A stretch of 29,129 bases of DNA from Candidatus Aenigmatarchaeota archaeon (GTDB lineage: Archaea > Aenigmatarchaeota > Aenigmatarchaeia > GW2011-AR5), in assembly GCA_043799385.1 (NCBI GenBank), contig JAZDNV010000017.1, positions 1-29,129 on the forward strand, read 5' to 3'. A program made the position numbers. Below are positions 1-9,000 of the stretch, one piece after another; the stretch's first letter is position 1, and every line of letters begins with the position of its first letter.

Positions 1-3000
1 TGAACATCTTTTCATTCTATCGAGCTTGCCGAAATATGTAAATACCGGCGATTCGCTAACTTTATATTTGGAGAAGTCATACGGTTTGGCATTTGGATTA
101 AACGCCTTTGTGTCAACACTCCTTCGCAGTGAAACAAACCTATCACGTTCCATACCCAACTCTGATAACATGCCTATTTTATCTCCACGTATCATGGCTT
201 TATCAGAAAATTTGAATACCTCGATGAATGCTGTACGCAGGAACGGAGAATCAAATAGCGTTGTTATGTCGCTGCCAGCATGCCTGACTATCATTGGTTT
301 TTTTGTCACGTGTTTTGCTATTAAAGCAGAGACGCCATACGGCAGTAGGTATTCTGAATATATCACATCAGGGTCGTGTTTTCTTATAACATCTATGGAT
401 AAGCTTGCTATTTTTGTAACATAAGAATTTAAATATGGTATAGGCGGTGATCTAGGGCGGTCGTTTTGCGTGCTGAACAGATGGACGTTTTTCGGCTCTA
501 ATTTTCCAGATTCCTCTTCTTGTATAACCTCTCTAAACGTTTCTTCCACTTCCCAGCAATTGCTCACAACGAAAACTTCATGCCCTACCTCGCCCAAGCC
601 TTTTGCCAGCCAGTATATACCAGACGATACACCGCCCTCGATAGGCGGATATTTAGAAATTATGCAGATTTTCATTTAATCATTAAAATATAAACAATAA
701 AATTTAATAAAGATGATTATAAGAACGGTTTTTGCGTTTAATAAATGTTTATGCTACTTCAGTGTTTTGCATAATTCTGGTGAGTTTTGCTTTGCATCCA
801 ATCTGATAGATGAAATTATACTCGTTTGAAAGCAGGCTTTCTGCAACAGCACTTTCTTCTGCCGTGATTTCAGCAAGGCAGAACCTCTTTGCCAGCATGT
901 AGTCAAAAACCTCGCATAGATCCTTCTGGTTCATATCCTGTATAGACGGCAGTATGTTGCACACTTTGCTGTTGAGCTCTTCCATTGGTATGCCGCTATT
1001 TGTGCTAAGGTCGCTTATGTTATTTGCGTGCATACAGTCCACGAAATAGTAAATCTGCATGTATGTTGATTCCCATTTTGTTTTTTCCACACCCATGATT
1101 TTGTTTGCCCATGATAATTCGCTCGTTCGGTCTAGCATCCCAAATCTGCACAATTTTGTAATAAAAGGTATATAGAATCCTTTCAAATCGTTCTCTGTTA
1201 GCGTGCTTGGTAAATTATTGTATGCAGACATGATTGCATCGGTTCTGTCTCTCATGATTTCAAAAGGCTCAAAACCTAGGTTTGCTTTCATCTGCATATA
1301 GACAAAAAGAAACGGTACCGCGCAATTTTTTTTAGAGTTGCAATCGTCAAATAACCGATCCAGATCGTTTGCTATCTGGTTTCTCTGTTCCTGCGTCAGG
1401 CTATTGAAATACCTTGGATTGTTGTATTCATTGAGGTTGCTCCATATTTCATTTATATTTAATGGTGTTGATGGCAGTTTTTGCAGATTATAGTAGTATA
1501 TCAAAGACAGTGCGACAATTATAAAAATTGCCAAAATCCAGCTGCTTTTTACTTTCTGTACTTTCGGCTGTACCTTTCGTCTCTTGTGAACGCTCCTGCT
1601 TTTTCTTTTCATATAAACTCTATGATATTTTTAAGCTCCTGCCCTGTTATTAACTTGTTTTCCCTGATATTTAAGTTTTGTTAAGTCGTTGATATCTGCC
1701 TTTATGATGCACAGATAGATGGAAGAATCGTATTGCCGATTATACATGCGGCTTATTTGCTATTCATATCAGCAATATTTAAGATAAATTATAATTATTA
1801 TTATCAGGGTTGGACAATGGATAGCAATGAAAAAAAAAGTCATCGAATAGAGACACTTTATCCACATCATTGTGTCTGGGAAATCACCCGTGCCTGCAAT
1901 ATGAGGTGTATACATTGCGGTTCAAGCGCAGGTCCGTTGACAAAAAGGCCGGACGAATTGAATACACAGGAAGCGTTGGATGTTATAAATCAGTTAAAGG
2001 AAATCGGAACAATAAAAGTCACCCTTTCCGGCGGAGAGCCTTTTCTAAGAGCAGACTGGGAAACTTTAGCAAAAGAAGTTGTCCGATTAAACATGTTCGT
2101 TTCGTTTATTAGCAATGGATTTTTGCTGAATGAGGATATAGCTGGGAGAATAAAAAGATTGAATGAAAACACTAATCTTGTACGTGTGGTATGCTTAAGT
2201 ATCGATGGTGATGAAAAAACCCACGATTATATAAGACAGACCAAGGGCTCTTTTGATAAGGTAACTCAAGCCATGGAAACGCTTAGAGATAGTGGTTTGA
2301 ATACTTCAGTGATAACACAGGTGAATAAGCTTAATCTTAAATTGCTGCCAAAGATAAGAGACAATATATTTAAATATAATAATATTGTTACTTGGCAGGT
2401 TCAAGTAGCTACTCCGTTCGGAAGGTTGGCTGAGGACCCAACGCTTTTGCTTAACCCTGGTGATTATCTCGAATTAGTAAATTTCATTGCAGAACAAAAA
2501 AGCATATTTGGAAGTAGAATCAGGATTGCTCATACCACAGGTTCATATACAGAGTCAGAGCCAATGTTAATTGGATGGGATGGTTGTTGGGCAGGATTAA
2601 AAGCTGTAGGAATTACCAGCAATGGCGGCGTGACCGGATGCCTGTCTTTGCAGGAGCCAAGGTTCATTGAAGGAAATGTGCGCACAAGAAGATTGGCGGA
2701 AATCTGGTATGATCCAAATTTTGCGTCATATAACCGTAATTTCAGAGAAGAGCTTCTGGAAGGTTATTGCAAGGAATGCGACCACCGCATAAAATGTCGT
2801 GGCGGTTGCAAAAATACAGCATATTCATTCTCCGGTTCACTTCATAATAATTTCTATTGTGCCCATAGAATCAGCCTTGGAGAAGTTCCCAAAGAAATAA
2901 AGTCAACCAGAACATCCGGGTGTGGTCAATACCATCCTTAGGGTTATATAAAAAATTCTATTTTTTCTCTGATAAATGAGAAATAAAGATTGATTTATTC

Positions 3001-6000: not shown

Positions 6001-9000
6001 AAATCCTGTGAAGCTTTGAATACGCAATCGGATGGGTAAAACCTTGTATCGAAGATTACAGTAACACTCCCATCCTCTTTGTTTATGGTTATTTTGTCAT
6101 TCATTTGCATTCGTCCTTATTTTTCCACGGCTTTGCGATCTTTTCCGGATCTTCTGTATATGATGCTTCATTTCTGGGGTGGTGAATAAATCGATGCTCT
6201 TGCTTGCCGTCCTGCTCGTTCGTGAGCAGTGCTCTGCGCATTATAGTTTCGCGCAAGCCCTGATTTTTCACAGTCCTATGCAGGTAAACCATGTAATTGA
6301 GTAATTCGTTGTTGAATTCACGACCCAATTCTTCGATATCTGAATCGTTCTTTGGTCTTAGCTGAACCAGAATCTCCTCTTTAGGGTCGCCGTCTATCAT
6401 GACGAATGCACGGTCAATAAAAATATATGCAGAGGAATATATCACCTCCAACGGATATAATCTTGGATTCACGGAAACATTTACGAACTTATCTTTTCTA
6501 TGCAGTTCAAGATTGTCTATCATCTGAATATCTTCTTCCATTAGAACACCCCATAGTATTAATATACTAGAGTTTAAATTATTTTGTGTTTGCAATACTT
6601 TTTGCTCTCGTTGTATTCGGTATATGGACTTCTTATACCGATATAAAGAAAGGCATGATTAGGAACAATGTCATTCTGCTCCTATTACTGGCAGCGTTTA
6701 TTCTGAACACATTCTATACGAGAAGTTTTGTTGTTGCTACTGCGGCATCGGCTGTAAACATAACGGTTGCCATAGTTGGAGGATTTTTGCTATGGTTTGC
6801 TGGTATGTGGTCAGCGGCAGACGCAAAATTGTTCATTGGCTTCGCCTTTCTTCTGCCTATAACCCTATATGAGCACAGTTTTTCATACTTTCCAGCTGTG
6901 GCGATTTTGATAAACAGCTTTGTGCCGATATTCTTGATACTTTTTATTAACTTGGTTTTAAAAACAAACTCAAAGGATATAAAGAAAGCCGTACGTGAAC
7001 AGTTAAATATAAAGAGTGTTCTTCGTTTGGCTCTGGCTGTTTTTGCAATATCATTTATACCCATGGTCATGCGCTATGTCTTTAATATACAGTTTGAATA
7101 CTTCACTTCGATACTCTTCCTTTTCATAATTTTTGAGGTTGTTGAAAAAACGATTAAGGTTAAAATGAATGTATTTTACATAATCATGTCAATCGCATAT
7201 GTCATATTTTTTAATAGTTATATATTTACATTGGATTTTATTTTCAATTTTATTAGATGGTTTCTAATGTTACTAGGAATATTCTTTTTGATTAATCTCA
7301 GCAGATTTTCATTCACTTCGTCGGTGAAGATAACCGAATTGAAAGAGGGTATGATACCTGCTGAAATCATTGTCAAAAGCAGCGAAAAATATGTTACAAG
7401 ACCAATGGCCTTTATTACCCCTTTCTCGATGCTTAGGCAGAGAAAGGAATCGATATTTGGATACAATCCTGACGGTCTGGTTGGCAAGGATATAAAAAAT
7501 ATTCAGTCATTGTATAGAGAGAAAAAGTTAGGTTTCGATGAGATTAGAGTATCCAATACAATGCCTTTTGCGCCGATATTATTCATAGGAGCGCTGATAA
7601 CCTATTTTTCTTCTGGAATCTTTCTTAATTTGTTCATATAAAAAGTTTATATTCCGCGAATAACAATTACTTTTATTGATAGATATGCGTAACAATATTT
7701 TGATTGCATTAGCGTTTTTGCTCCTACTGCAATTTTCTTATGCTGCATGCCCAGAATCAACTTGTTTGGCTCTTGGCTATTCTACTGCACGGTGCAGCGG
7801 TGCGACGACTTGTAATTCTGGCGAAGTTGATGTAGCATCATGCACAACTGGGCCGTATGGCGAAAGATATCCATGTTGCTGTTCCAGTCCAATGAAAATC
7901 TGGATAAAAGACCCAAACGATTTTACAGTAGTGAATGGGGCATTGATGAGCAGTTGCACTTTAGCCAGTAGTACACAATCGTGCTTTTATTCATATTATA
8001 CATGCGATGTAAGGGGAACTTATACAGGTCAGACATGCAAGGATTATTCTTCTGGCTTGGATTATGTGGCTGGAACAACGTGCAGTGCTTGGACGAATCT
8101 CTGGTATTGCAATATTGAATGTAAAAAAGACAAGGACTGCCCTGAGGGTGAGTGCTGCCTTGTTGACAATACATGTGGCCTTTGCCCGCCACCGCCGCCG
8201 TGCGAGACGGACAACGACTGCTCGCCAGAAATAACAGGCGATTACTGCTGCGCGGACGGAAAGTGCAGGTCGTCATGCGCAGGTTATCCGAACGTTACTA
8301 TCACACCGGCAATACAATACGGCTTGGCAGGAGAAGCGTTGAGCTATACAGTAACGGTGAACAATTCAAATAATTCTGCTCCGGTTTCATTCACGCTGAC
8401 TTATGGATGCCCGCAGAACTGGACGTGCAGCTTCAGCAAAAACACGATTGTTGTAAATCAGAGCAACATAACAACAATGTCTGTGTTACCGCCCCTGGGC
8501 AAGGACGCTGGCAGTTATAGATTCAGTGCAACTGCGGCAAGGAGCTCAAACACGAGCATTTCAGGAATAGGCTATGCGACATACGTCCTGGAGTCGCAGT
8601 GCAATCTAGATTGCAATGCAAGAAACTACATCGCAGGCTCGTGCAGATCCGTATGCGAATCGCCGGACTGGATTGGAATAGGCGCATCCGATTGCCTGAG
8701 CAGCTGCTGCTGCATAAACGCAACAATGCCTGCGAACGCTAGCGAGTGGAGCGTAACGGTTTCACTGAACCTGACAGCAAAGAGACCGAATGAAGTAAAT
8801 TGGTCATACTTCGGGAATCTCGACTTTTCGACTGGCATGGCTACAGCTACAGGAAGACTTTTCGAATATTCAAACTACCTTTCACCATCCAAAACAAGCG
8901 GATACGTGAACCTTCTGCAGAATCCGTGTGAACCAGGTGATTTTGTGATACCAAGTGTTAATACACGGGTGATATGGACAAAGCCAACGTTCTCTAGGGA

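Follow-up and report, generated by a model that had tools for sequence, protein, structure and literature searches.

Hxs systems and the archaeal locus

The HXS system was reportedly first predicted by Haft and Basu in 2011. Its four components, HxsD-HxsB-HxsC-HxsA, have been described by Li et al. (Nat Commun 2026, PMC13128918); that article places 99.7% of the HXS systems in Pseudomonadota, does not use the word "archaea" in its text, and presents HxsC of E. coli as the partner of HxsD and the proposed modifying enzyme. The archaeal form has been partly anticipated by four NCBIfam models, HxsA3 (NF038309), HxsA4 (NF038313), HxsC4 (NF038332) and HxsD-like (NF038315).

The window (the whole stretch of 29,129 nucleotides analysed here, from a Candidatus Aenigmatarchaeota archaeon) contains, on mixed strands at 749-7641, a locus that encodes HxsB, two small HxsD-family proteins (D1 and D2), a precursor peptide, a second SPASM enzyme, two proteins termed unkA and unkB, and a divergent A24 peptidase. 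A first-pass annotation had proposed homology to HXS maturation, and all its gene positions proved correct. At the sequence level the homology to the bacterial HXS maturation machinery is well supported: HxsB exceeds its curated cut-off, the HxsD and HxsD-like orthologues of locus L022 pass theirs, and the sister precursors are rich in His-x-Ser (HxS) motifs. The cassette is very probably an Hxs-type maturation system. Its present form was seen in archaeal records only, the majority labelled as DPANN lineages, with the gene order shuffled among 38 distinct Hxs loci. HxsB is patchily distributed (29 genomes in one sample of 301 from the phylum, and 2 of 34 sampled genomes of the window's own family), and three genomes (G037, G044 and G071) have two copies each, from different subclades.

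The radical-SAM/SPASM maturase HxsB (482 aa; 4372-5820, minus strand) scores 403.2 bits against the cut-off of 370 of TIGR03978, as had been claimed, and is an orthologue of the bacterial protein; it shares 32.5% identity with the HxsB annotated on an Aeromonas plasmid. In a tree it falls inside an archaeal clade (support 100/100), separate from two bacterial HxsB. As in bacterial HXS, HxsD-family genes lie directly upstream of hxsB, but there are two instead of one. D1 (93 aa; 5829-6110, minus strand) is present in 22 of the 38 loci by BLAST and reaches 37.4 bits with the HxsD-like model, under the cut-off of 41 that its L022 orthologue passes with 46.6. D2 (146 aa; 6101-6541, minus strand, with its ATG at 6541 and an open frame extending to a TTG at 6595) is found in 36 of the 38; its score with the HxsD model TIGR03976 is 42.7, under the cut-off of 50, and the L022 orthologue passes with 55.9. 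Both window scores reproduce those reported earlier.

The HxsC model (TIGR03977, cut-off 267.9) gave at best 103.8 in the genome and 58.4 in the locus, so that the absence of HxsC from the locus, noted before, is borne out. In place of HxsC there is another enzyme with radical-SAM and SPASM domains (87.2 and 39.2 bits; 374 aa; 1817-2941, plus strand), convergent with the precursor gene and correctly recognised in the first-pass annotation as a second SPASM enzyme. We rejected it as a candidate HxsC on the score of 58.4; its top NCBIfam match is nif11-class maturase 3, with 237.9 against a cut-off of 725. Among the fetched loci its nearest relative (28% identity, E 1e-26) is a 558-aa SPASM enzyme of L027, which shares one operon with the A24 and precursor genes of that locus. 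HxsC4-like enzymes occur in L024 and L027, although they score only about 180 against 500. We have counted against our best explanation both the missing HxsC and the fact that the HxsD, HxsD-like and HxsA scores of the window all lie under the curated cut-offs.

The genes unkA and unkB were absent from the first-pass annotation, although unkB lies inside the operon, between hxsB and the precursor gene (3422-4306, minus strand). It encodes a membrane-anchored protein of 294 aa with nine Cys columns invariant across 22 sequences; a set of 1.84 billion proteins contained only 26 representatives. By hhalign it matches a membrane protein encoded downstream of a (GC)n-type precursor in L071 (probability 90.9%, E 1e-6, 63 columns; four control proteins, 0.1-1.6%); its Atlas model has a pLDDT of 0.50. 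A paralogue of unkB (31% identity over 283 aa, E 2e-41), unkA (287 aa; 749-1612, minus strand) is rich in Cys, has a membrane anchor at its N-terminus, matches no Pfam or NCBIfam family and is divergent from the SPASM enzyme gene; paralogy and position are what would place it in the Hxs system.

The precursor peptide and its family

The precursor (125 aa; 3013-3390, minus strand), identified by its HxsA3 match and an alignment with 14 relatives, lies downstream of hxsB and, as in bacterial HXS, combines HxS motifs with an export signal, with N-terminal processing to be expected. Its leader (residues 1-20) ends in E-E-G and is followed by the polar K-V-S-K-Q; residues 27-45 are weakly hydrophobic, the conserved His-bearing core spans 43-68, and the tail reads (C-T-T-x)9. 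The peptide has nine CTT units and 14 Cys in total, and its gene has tandem repeats of 12 and 24 nt at 3061-3144. Contrary to the two HxS motifs counted earlier there are three, HIS at 44, HTS at 62 and HGS at 66. The reported match of residues 4-47 to HxsA3 was reproduced (21.6 bits, E 1.4e-4, cut-off 65), the leader and hydrophobic stretch aligning to model positions 2-45. The sister precursors, with 8-18 HxS repeats each, align end to end with HxsA4, at 51.9 (L022) and 55.8 (G310) against a cut-off of 55, and the sister D1 is over the HxsD-like cut-off, whereas the window proteins remain below every cut-off of the four NCBIfam models.

The five relatives previously obtained by single-sequence search were recovered, but they are not the total, since a profile search gives at least 536 archaeal "hypothetical" proteins; one relative does carry the same leader plus (TTS)19 (L046), as had been described. 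Members have in common a leader of 20 aa with E-x-G at its end, the weakly hydrophobic stretch and the conserved His-bearing core, usually with 5-25 HxS repeats; the cores are highly variable, metal ligands abound in the tails (His repeats, (GC)n, C-x-x-x-C), and some members reach 435-545 aa and carry Hint or other domains. Since the window member has only three HxS motifs, the residues targeted by its HxsB may differ. Of 123 members, 110 allowed the leader to be anchored; 109 of these have Gly at -1, 108 have Glu at -3 and 92 have Lys or Arg at +1.

These precursors differ from bacterial HxsA in having the extra 20-aa leader (the one bacterial HxsA that we translated, from Aeromonas, has a plain signal peptide and no such leader) and in lacking a peptidoglycan-binding domain and basic repeat residues, the archaeal repeats being H-[AGST]-S without Arg or Lys. 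In the window the repeats themselves are nearly gone, replaced by the Cys/Thr tail, and the host is archaeal. The Cys-rich repetitive core is reminiscent of the thioether RiPPs matured by SPASM enzymes, such as SCIFF/ranthipeptides and CXXX-repeat peptides. Along these lines, the SPASM maturases of the locus best match PapB, SCIFF and related families outside Hxs, and the solved chain closest to HxsB is 5wgg_A (E 4e-27), which we take to be the SCIFF maturase CteB, maker of a Cys-Thr thioether. The scores are nevertheless far below the cut-offs (for HxsB, 147.8 against 340 for the ranthipeptide maturase PapB and 138.4 against 425 for the SCIFF maturase; 85.5 against 350 for the CXXX-repeat family), and, unlike those peptides, the window precursor bears a signal for export and is accompanied by a membrane protease.

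A dedicated A24 peptidase paralogue

Archaeal prepilin and preflagellin peptidases of the A24 family, aspartyl membrane proteases, include FlaK, PibD and EppA. The Hxs-linked member (351 aa; 6586-7641, plus strand, divergent from D2) has the Arc_PepC domain (31.1 bits, cut-off 23.4), and its Peptidase_A24 score is 24.5 by hmmscan and 27.1 in a six-frame search, against 26.5; the two Asp of the family motifs, D19 and D79, both catalytic, are invariant in seven orthologues. The earlier label of an EppA-type prepilin peptidase is thus sustained as to A24 and Arc_PepC, not as to the EppA type. No NCBIfam model matched the protein, and a profile search of the PDB with it found no A24 structure because the sequence is too divergent. 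In five genomes there is exactly one long paralogue per HxsB copy and, elsewhere in each, a separate canonical A24 of 255-287 aa, some 90-130 aa shorter than the Hxs-linked form. The two A24 proteins of genome G000 gave no mutual alignment by tblastn at E 1e-5, and only the Hxs-linked one has Arc_PepC.

When the lists of both genes were compared over the sample of 301 genomes, HxsB was present in 29 and the A24 paralogue in 28; 27 had both, two HxsB only, one the paralogue only and 271 neither. Of the three exceptions, G007 and G050 were checked and are contig breaks, and in G212 only 95 bases separate the start of HxsB from a contig end. The paralogue adjoins Hxs genes in 31 of the 38 loci, and the linkage is seen in records labelled Aenigmatarchaeota, Woesearchaeota and Altiarchaeota alike. 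In the single operon of L027 it overlaps with the gene for the precursor, in G284, where HxsB is 116 kb distant, a precursor gene follows it directly, and in L037 it is fused to a PMT_2 glycosyltransferase; L034, with ample flanks, has no A24 gene and a TPR protein in that place, which counts against a general role. An ordinary prepilin peptidase adjoining a radical-SAM peptide cluster by chance is hardly credible: the gene does lie on the strand opposite the Hxs operon, near surface-protein and pilus-type genes, but the co-occurrence, the copy number beside a separate canonical A24, the adjacency and its retention across lineages all contradict it.

Membership of the paralogue in the Hxs system is strongly supported by this linkage. 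From the same linkage it probably also processes the precursor, as the first-pass annotation had proposed, and a cut after Gly20 is slightly favoured: as in A24 substrates, Gly precedes the presumed site and a hydrophobic segment follows. The leader itself is unlike a class III signal, being 20 aa long with acidic residues at -2 and -3, Lys at +1 and five polar residues before the hydrophobic stretch, whereas pilins of this genome have M-K-G followed immediately by a very hydrophobic helix. According to PMC13128918, bacterial HxsA is processed although its cluster has no A24 gene, an observation that we counted against the A24 role; the two bacterial Hxs loci that we examined have none either.

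Maturation, export and possible roles of the product

An Hxs-type maturation-and-export cassette is our best explanation of the window (at roughly 60%). The observations establish homologous parts, a gene set that is conserved and a peptidase closely linked to it; from these we infer the modification chemistry, the membrane topology, the cleaving enzyme with its site and the eventual role of the product, as follows. The precursor would be made with its conserved leader, which in the cytoplasm would direct HxsB to the conserved His-bearing core for modification, the two HxsD-family proteins assisting; in this window the extra SPASM enzyme would modify the Cys/Thr tail, most likely by Cys-to-Thr thioether cross-links. 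The weakly hydrophobic stretch would then insert the peptide in the membrane with the modified part outside, and on the cytoplasmic side the A24 paralogue would cleave behind the invariant Gly (E-E-G|K, residue 20) to free the peptide of its leader. The finished product, which probably acts outside the cell membrane, would be kept at the cell envelope or released.

Release is the basis of a tentative reading in which signal peptidase I cleaves the leaderless peptide where the hydrophobic stretch ends in Ala-rich sequence and frees a cross-linked His/Ser-rich (here Cys/Thr) peptide, starting at the conserved His or Thr, as an antimicrobial or metal chelator. The stretch is present, as the first-pass annotation had said in calling the precursor membrane-anchored, but anchoring is an interpretation: its maximum hydropathy over 19 aa (1.5-1.8 among the precursors) is much weaker than that of the pilin-like proteins of this genome (2.8-3.2) and resembles a signal peptide. 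Its last residues before the conserved His are usually rich in Ala (of 110 members, 52 have Ala at -2 and 46 at -4), G000 encodes a signal peptidase I of the archaeal kind (85.1 bits, cut-off 51.85), the tails are full of metal ligands, and the nearest relatives of the window precursor adjoin RiPP-type tailoring enzymes, a YcaO (L068) and a B12-radical-SAM enzyme (L070). However, a loose A-x-A rule does not discriminate: of 110 members, 94 satisfy it at the end of the stretch and nearly as many (92 and 75) within it. No gene for transport or immunity was recognised, and G000 (91% complete) has no YcaO. With a second cleavage it would also be difficult to account for a dedicated A24 enzyme, unless export has to wait for leader removal.

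By analogy with periplasmic HxsA in E. coli, the matured peptide might instead block the entry of viral DNA from outside the membrane, a reading that we consider unlikely. The maturation enzymes are homologous to a system that PMC13128918 reports as proven anti-phage in E. coli, and the patchy distribution, the double copies from different subclades and the variable cores would fit. The same source makes that mechanism dependent on basic repeat residues and a peptidoglycan-binding domain, neither of which the archaeal precursors have. AbiEii-like, MNT/HEPN-like or Hachiman-like genes lie near L022, L034 and L044, but these neighbours were picked out by eye rather than against a background rate, and around the locus in the window lie genes for surface proteins, pilus-type functions and glycans. 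PADLOC found no defence match in the window except a generic radical-SAM similarity to viperin models, and no related Hxs locus was found on viral contigs.

Pilins can be O-glycosylated, and the PMT_2 fusion and linkage resemble this. The A24 family is moreover a hallmark of pilin processing, and in the window a type-IV-pilus-type assembly set (a FlaI-like ATPase, a KaiC/FlaH-like protein and two TadC-like membrane proteins; 10367-14701, plus strand) stands as context near the locus, with the ATPase scoring 394.1 against the FlaI cut-off of 550. After A24 cleavage the peptide could then be a short, radical-SAM-modified pilin-like subunit, assembled into or exported by this machine, which strikes us as distinctly improbable. 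The set adjoins Hxs genes in 3 of the 38 loci (the window, L041 and L042, in the last on one strand throughout) and, by coordinates, in G007 and G050, and scanning the window with a regular expression gave no gene for a class III pilin. Against this, the association is confined to the window's own order; pilus-type genes are absent from the fetched flanks of 20 further loci in other families of the class, as well as from those of the Woesearchaeota- and Altiarchaeota-labelled loci. The set is a core locus with orthologues in 61 of 61 relatives, FlaI included, while the A24 paralogue is found in 7 of 61. The low hydropathy of the precursors and the size and Hint or other domains of the longest family members also speak against a pilin.

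Returning to the Hxs-type maturation-and-export cassette, what is new is that its A24 gene is a dedicated paralogue tied to the Hxs genes and distinct from the housekeeping prepilin peptidase. Such a dedicated protease suggests a route by which Hxs-type peptides lose their leader.

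Organization of the cassette and its Hxs core

Five genes of the window (its genome has 786 kb in 31 contigs and is 91% complete) stand nearly head to tail on the minus strand: an HxsD-family gene (D2, 6541-6101), an HxsD-like gene (D1, 6110-5829), HxsB (5820-4372), unkB, which encodes a 294-aa membrane-anchored protein (4306-3422), and the gene of the 125-aa precursor (3390-3013). The gene of an A24 (prepilin-peptidase family) paralogue (6586-7641) is divergent from D2, 44 bases apart, and the precursor gene has a convergent neighbour, a radical-SAM/SPASM gene (1817-2941). Beyond the SPASM gene comes unkA (1612-749), which is paralogous to unkB (31% identity, E 2e-41). 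No tRNA was found in the window. There is no RNA run among the sequencing runs listed, and one DNA run contains 0.13 of the words sampled.

The four profile scores of the first-pass annotation were reproduced. HxsB reaches 403.2 bits on TIGR03978 (cut-off 370), covering model positions 3-465 of 466, which identifies it as a member of the family. D2 scores 42.7 on HxsD (TIGR03976, cut-off 50), D1 37.4 on HxsD-like (NF038315, cut-off 41) and the precursor 21.6 on HxsA3 (cut-off 65), the last in residues 4-47, the leader region only. At the sister locus L022 the orthologue of D2, 48% identical (alignment A2), scores 55.9 on HxsD, and D1 passes its own cut-off with 46.6; the Aeromonas HxsD gave no BLASTP alignment with the HxsD-family protein of the window. 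The absence of HxsC, also claimed in that annotation, was borne out, the best TIGR03977 match being 58.4 bits in the locus and 103.8 bits in the genome (cut-off 267.9), on another contig and within a glycan-type cluster. The radical-SAM genes on contig C29 and in window 21061-24308 were not counted as HxsC substitutes, given their location in glycan-type clusters. The cluster in the window (17293-26997) includes a GT2, a phosphodiesterase-like protein, a DegT-type aminotransferase, an asparagine-synthase-like protein and two radical-SAM genes (21061-22128 and 23325-24308); the one on C29 (3238-12806) is partly paralogous to it and includes a 712-aa protein with two radical-SAM matches.

About 95 residues precede the radical-SAM motif of HxsB, and its alignment to 5wgg_A starts at residue 54; this chain is CteB, a SCIFF maturase with a domain for peptide binding at its N-terminus. 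Against the ranthipeptide, SCIFF and CXXX-repeat RiPPs, the maturases of the window stay below every family cut-off: HxsB has 147.8 bits on PapB (cut-off 340), 138.4 on SCIFF (425) and 85.5 on CXXX-repeat (350), and the SPASM enzyme 63.7 on PapB. The sole enzyme similar to the latter among the loci is that of L027, where it accompanies a Cys-bearing precursor. In a maximum-likelihood tree the 35 archaeal HxsB sequences form one clade (support 100/100) apart from two bacterial ones, with the window sequence sister to that of the related genome G007 (100/99); three genomes (G037, G044 and G071) have two HxsB copies each, placed in different subclades.

Related loci were gathered by searching 61 relatives with the HxsB model and fetching the matching loci, by scanning one genome per species with the HxsD alignment (17 loci) and from a phylum sample (20 further loci), giving 38 distinct loci after one duplicate was removed. 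All 17 loci of the scan come from archaeal MAGs, titled Aenigmatarchaeota, Woesearchaeota, Altiarchaeota/Altiarchaeales, 'uncultured Methanosarcinales' or just archaeon. Counted by BLAST with the proteins of the window, D2 was present in 36 of the 38 loci, HxsB in 35, the A24 paralogue in 31, a further radical-SAM gene in 30, D1 and the precursor in 22 each and pilus-type genes in 3. Many loci carry one to three extra B12-binding radical-SAM genes (L029/L045, L034, L031, L060, L063, L064 and L072), and L037 has six HxsC4-like radical-SAM genes side by side, so that tailoring enzymes vary far more from locus to locus than the A24-HxsD-HxsB core does. Most of the genomes compared are fragmented MAGs, and taxon labels are those of the records. 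Two labels look out of place: L043 is titled uncultured Methanosarcinales, yet its neighbouring genes cluster with those of the Woesearchaeota-labelled L036 and L037, and one source name in a cluster of A24 paralogues (P0185) is Candidatus Nealsonbacteria, a CPR bacterium. Binning errors and real transfers are both possible explanations.

A precursor family with a common leader and variable tails

The precursor of the window has three H-x-S motifs (residues 44, 62 and 66), one more than the first-pass annotation had counted, as well as 14 Cys and nine CTT units. Tandem repeats of 12 and 24 nt encode its tail. The tail was also considered as a frameshifted HxS region, an idea that we rejected, the other frames of the repeat having no H-x-S run and relatives having TTS or TTG tails. 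The architecture of the bacterial effector HxsA (signal peptide, several H-x-S repeats and a peptidoglycan-binding domain) was not recovered: the window peptide lacks any Pfam domain, in agreement with the earlier statement that it has no peptidoglycan-binding domain, and the precursors of the sister loci, with 8, 17 and 18 H-x-S motifs, have no such domain either.

With a profile of 13 precursors 8,000 candidates were scored, and at least 536 of these proteins reached E 1e-3 or better. Every named one is a 'hypothetical protein', and the sources are MAGs labelled Altiarchaeota, Diapherotrites, Aenigmarchaeota, Micrarchaeia, Woesearchaeota or Nanobdellota. The common plan consists of a leader of ~20 residues, a short basic stretch, ~20 weakly hydrophobic residues and a conserved segment with a His at its start and H-x-H-H at its end (kept in the window peptide at 43-68), followed usually by 5-25 H-[AGST]-S repeats and a variable tail. 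The tails include Cys-rich runs and, in L046, (TTS)19 with a 400-aa domain after it. In L054 (6059-7366, minus strand) and L061 (9842-10528, plus strand) the HxS repeats lead into one or two domains of the intein-like, self-cleaving Hint type, and four family proteins (P0049, P0083, P0111 and P0121) have extra C-terminal domains, Hint or, once, Peptidase_S74 (P0121, precomputed Pfam). Members of this kind suggest that the exported part is self-processed at its C-terminus.

The most uniform region is the end of the leader. In the 110 leaders that could be anchored among 123 family members, the residue at -1 is Gly in 109, at -3 Glu in 108, at -2 Glu or Asp in 88 and at +1 Lys or Arg in 92. The first-pass annotation had noted a likeness to class III signal peptides (a short basic leader, Gly or Ala at -1 and a hydrophobic helix from +1). 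The Gly at -1 does fit, and it is the one feature that does; the leader is ~20 aa long and acidic at -2 and -3, a Lys or Arg stands at +1, and five polar residues come before the weak hydrophobic stretch. The pilin-like proteins of the same genome have M-K-G, the cut and then the helix at once, with a 19-aa hydropathy of 2.8-3.2 against 1.5-1.8 in the precursors. A tblastn search of plasmids with a sister leader found nothing.

The closest relatives of the window peptide are precursors of the (GC)n type from metagenome contigs. Just downstream of these stands a gene for a membrane-anchored protein that matches the unkB profile in its C-terminal part, over 63 columns and with Cys in common (probability 90.9%, E 1e-6; 58.9% for a second such protein); four control proteins gave 0.1-1.6%. 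Among 1.84 billion proteins unkB has just 26 representatives, with 9 invariant Cys. BLAST detected no homologue of it in the other fetched loci, a metagenome scan with its alignment (A5) found nothing, and the membrane-anchored proteins beside the precursors of L030, L034, L037, L044, L024 and L026 have no profile similarity to it; the Atlas gave a low-confidence helical-repeat look-alike only. We read unkB as a probable partner specific to the Cys-rich branch of the precursor family, working outside the membrane.

A dedicated A24 peptidase

The catalytic D19 and D79 are invariant across 7 orthologues of the A24 paralogue, as expected of the family. The window protein scores 31.1 on Arc_PepC (cut-off 23.4) and is borderline on Peptidase_A24 (24.5 by hmmscan and 27.1 in six frames, against 26.5). 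No NCBIfam model matches it, and PDB profile searches with it, with unkB and with HxsD gave chance-level matches only. It is distinct from the housekeeping enzyme of the same genome (contig C30, 262 aa), which has the Peptidase_A24 domain only and does not align with it by tblastn at E 1e-5. Each of five genomes checked has a canonical short A24 elsewhere (frames of 255-287 aa, 37-49 bits on PF01478) and exactly one long divergent paralogue (356-395 aa) per HxsB copy.

The paralogue follows HxsB across genomes. Among the 61 relatives it was found in exactly the seven with an HxsB match of at least 180 bits. In a 301-genome sample of the phylum, HxsB (E 1e-60 or better) is present in 29 genomes and the paralogue (by profile, E 1e-20 or better) in 28; comparing the lists by hand, 27 genomes have both, two HxsB only (G007 and G212), one the paralogue only (G050) and 271 neither, counts that are not a formal statistic since the genomes are related. 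The exceptions in G007 and G050 are contig breaks, with fragments of the missing partner detected, and in G212 only 95 bases separate the start of HxsB from the end of a contig. As to the seven loci in which no A24 match was obtained, the contigs of L028, L030 and L064 begin at D2 or HxsB, that of L062 has just 3.2 kb, the core of L063 stops 101 bases short of the contig end, and L032 has at its contig end a partial A24-like frame that clusters with the family. A24 is truly absent from L034 (flanks of 8.3 kb and 7.4 kb), which has a TPR protein in its position. The linkage is kept while gene order differs among loci. The A24 gene of L027 stands in one operon with the precursor gene, which it overlaps by four bases at its stop, and in G284 the precursor comes directly after the A24 gene, with HxsB 116 kb away. 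This linkage strongly supports that the A24 peptidase belongs to the Hxs system.

In the Woesearchaeota-labelled L037 (6291-8954, plus strand) the paralogue is fused to a PMT_2 (GT-C) glycosyltransferase, and separate PMT_2 genes are found in L036 (11155-12777) and L031 (13467-15431); those of the window's genome all lie outside the window. The fusion and the linked genes hint at O-glycosylation of a Ser/Thr-rich cargo.

The bacterial HXS system has HxsB and the HxsD family in common with the archaeal cassette, and maturation probably works alike; the two differ in HxsC and in the architecture of HxsA. The one canonical bacterial HxsA translated, that of an Aeromonas plasmid, lacks the archaeal leader; its signal peptide is an ordinary one and its H-R-S repeats are rich in Arg. 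Neither of two annotated bacterial loci has an A24 gene. In what was examined, leader and A24 peptidase are present together and absent together. With regard to the NCBIfam HxsD-like/HxsA4/HxsC4 set, the window is under every cut-off, with no precursor match to HxsA4 (NF038313, cut-off 55) and no HxsC4-like gene (NF038332, cut-off 500); relatives reach 46.6 on HxsD-like, 51.9 (L022) and 55.8 (G310, a gene directly after HxsB) on HxsA4 and at most 180.9 on HxsC4. The existence of these models and of HxsA3 indicates that curators have already seen related variants, and the new element is the dedicated A24 peptidase with its matching leader. In the literature searched, the E. coli HXS paper and its preprint alone treat the system, and no paper ties a prepilin-type peptidase to radical-SAM peptide maturation or brings the two together with RiPPs or DPANN. 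The 2026 HXS paper leaves open the cutting and export of HxsA and the radical-SAM chemistry, treats the system as essentially proteobacterial and does not mention archaea in its text (PMC13128918).

Maturation and possible roles of the exported products

A way to make sense of these observations is that the leader would, most likely, be the handle for the cytoplasmic enzymes, and that it would be removed after Gly20 by the private A24 paralogue, since an invariant Gly near a hydrophobic stretch is what A24 enzymes need at -1. A24 enzymes cleave at the cytoplasmic face of the membrane, and here the cut would come once the hydrophobic stretch has entered it. The site itself, of low hydropathy and with five polar residues after the Gly, departs from class III, which fits a specialised paralogue and agrees better with a signal-peptide-like, transient membrane segment than with a pilin core. 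An archaeal signal peptidase I is encoded in the genome (C7:7089-7550, minus strand, 85.1 bits, with one TAG inside the matched stretch). The A-x-A rule of signal peptidase was discarded as a guide, for it holds in 94 of 110 proteins at the end of the stretch, and control windows placed within the stretch gave 92 and 75 of 110. For the tail of the window peptide, Cys-Thr thioether cross-links made by the extra SPASM enzyme would be the most economical guess, because the best matches outside Hxs are ranthipeptide and SCIFF maturases, with scores far under the cut-offs, and the L027 enzyme accompanies a Cys-bearing precursor. The whole account is comparative in its basis.

Taken together, we tentatively propose an archaeal (DPANN-labelled) family of surface peptides and proteins, with at least 536 members, that would be modified by radical-SAM enzymes in the cytoplasm, lose the leader to their own A24 paralogue and form a variable outer coat, acting against viruses or in contact with the host (probability about 0.35). 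Several large surface proteins adjoin the A24 genes. In the window the next gene (7676-10012, plus strand) encodes a 778-aa Cys-rich protein that has a signal peptide and is anchored in the membrane at its C-terminus, a 1201-aa relative of it (24% identity over 336 aa) is also found after the A24 gene of L035, and in L036, L037 and L043 this gene is flanked by unrelated large surface proteins. Further along, just past the pilus-type genes, the window encodes a secreted protein of 530 aa that matches no family and has a long low-complexity region rich in Gly (15154-16746, plus strand).

The products might instead be released RiPPs or metal-binding peptides, which we consider possible if doubtful, as the tails are rich in His and Cys and tailoring enzymes stand beside the nearest relatives. 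Adjoining (GC)n-type precursors are a YcaO cyclodehydratase (L068:490-1716, minus strand, 164 bits) and a B12-binding radical-SAM enzyme (L070:557-2140, minus strand); YcaO has no match in the window's own genome.

Antiviral defence proper, by a block to DNA entry, would be the role suggested by analogy, the enzymes being homologous to those of a proven anti-phage system. The cassette occurs patchily (in 29 of 301 genomes and, within the window's own family, in 2 of 34 sampled), some genomes have two copies, the cargo is variable, and a few loci have defence-like neighbours, chosen by eye. However, the E. coli model needs basic residues and a peptidoglycan anchor (PMC13128918), and the archaeal proteins have neither. 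The neighbours in the window are surface-protein, pilus-type and glycan genes, without a PADLOC defence match, and scans of viral contigs with alignments A2 and A3 detected no related locus; we regard a defence role as rather unlikely. A pilus-related role for the peptide is improbable, for although the Hxs genes adjoin a core pilus-type locus in five genomes of the window's order, a FlaI orthologue is present in 61 of 61 relatives, neither the 20 loci of other families nor those labelled Woesearchaeota or Altiarchaeota have pilus-type genes, and the hydropathy of the precursors is low.

If the proposed coat reading is true, an A24 intramembrane aspartyl protease would have taken on the role of leader peptidase in a RiPP-like pathway, with His/Ser repeats, Cys/Thr repeats, Hint fusions and glycosylated stalks as its outer-coat products, and the same argument would offer a pointer to the protease step in bacterial HXS. 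A private A24 enzyme and a leader ending in a near-invariant Gly provide a concrete hypothesis, one protease and one site. The HXS core machinery is found in roughly one in ten of the genomes sampled from an archaeal phylum, as well as in Woesearchaeota- and Altiarchaeota-labelled MAGs, the precursor family also reaches Diapherotrites- and Micrarchaeia-labelled records, and hundreds of small archaeal 'hypothetical' proteins would gain a name and a context. The exported cargo of the Hxs machinery appears to be very plastic, a property relevant to the way in which these host-dependent archaea construct their surface.
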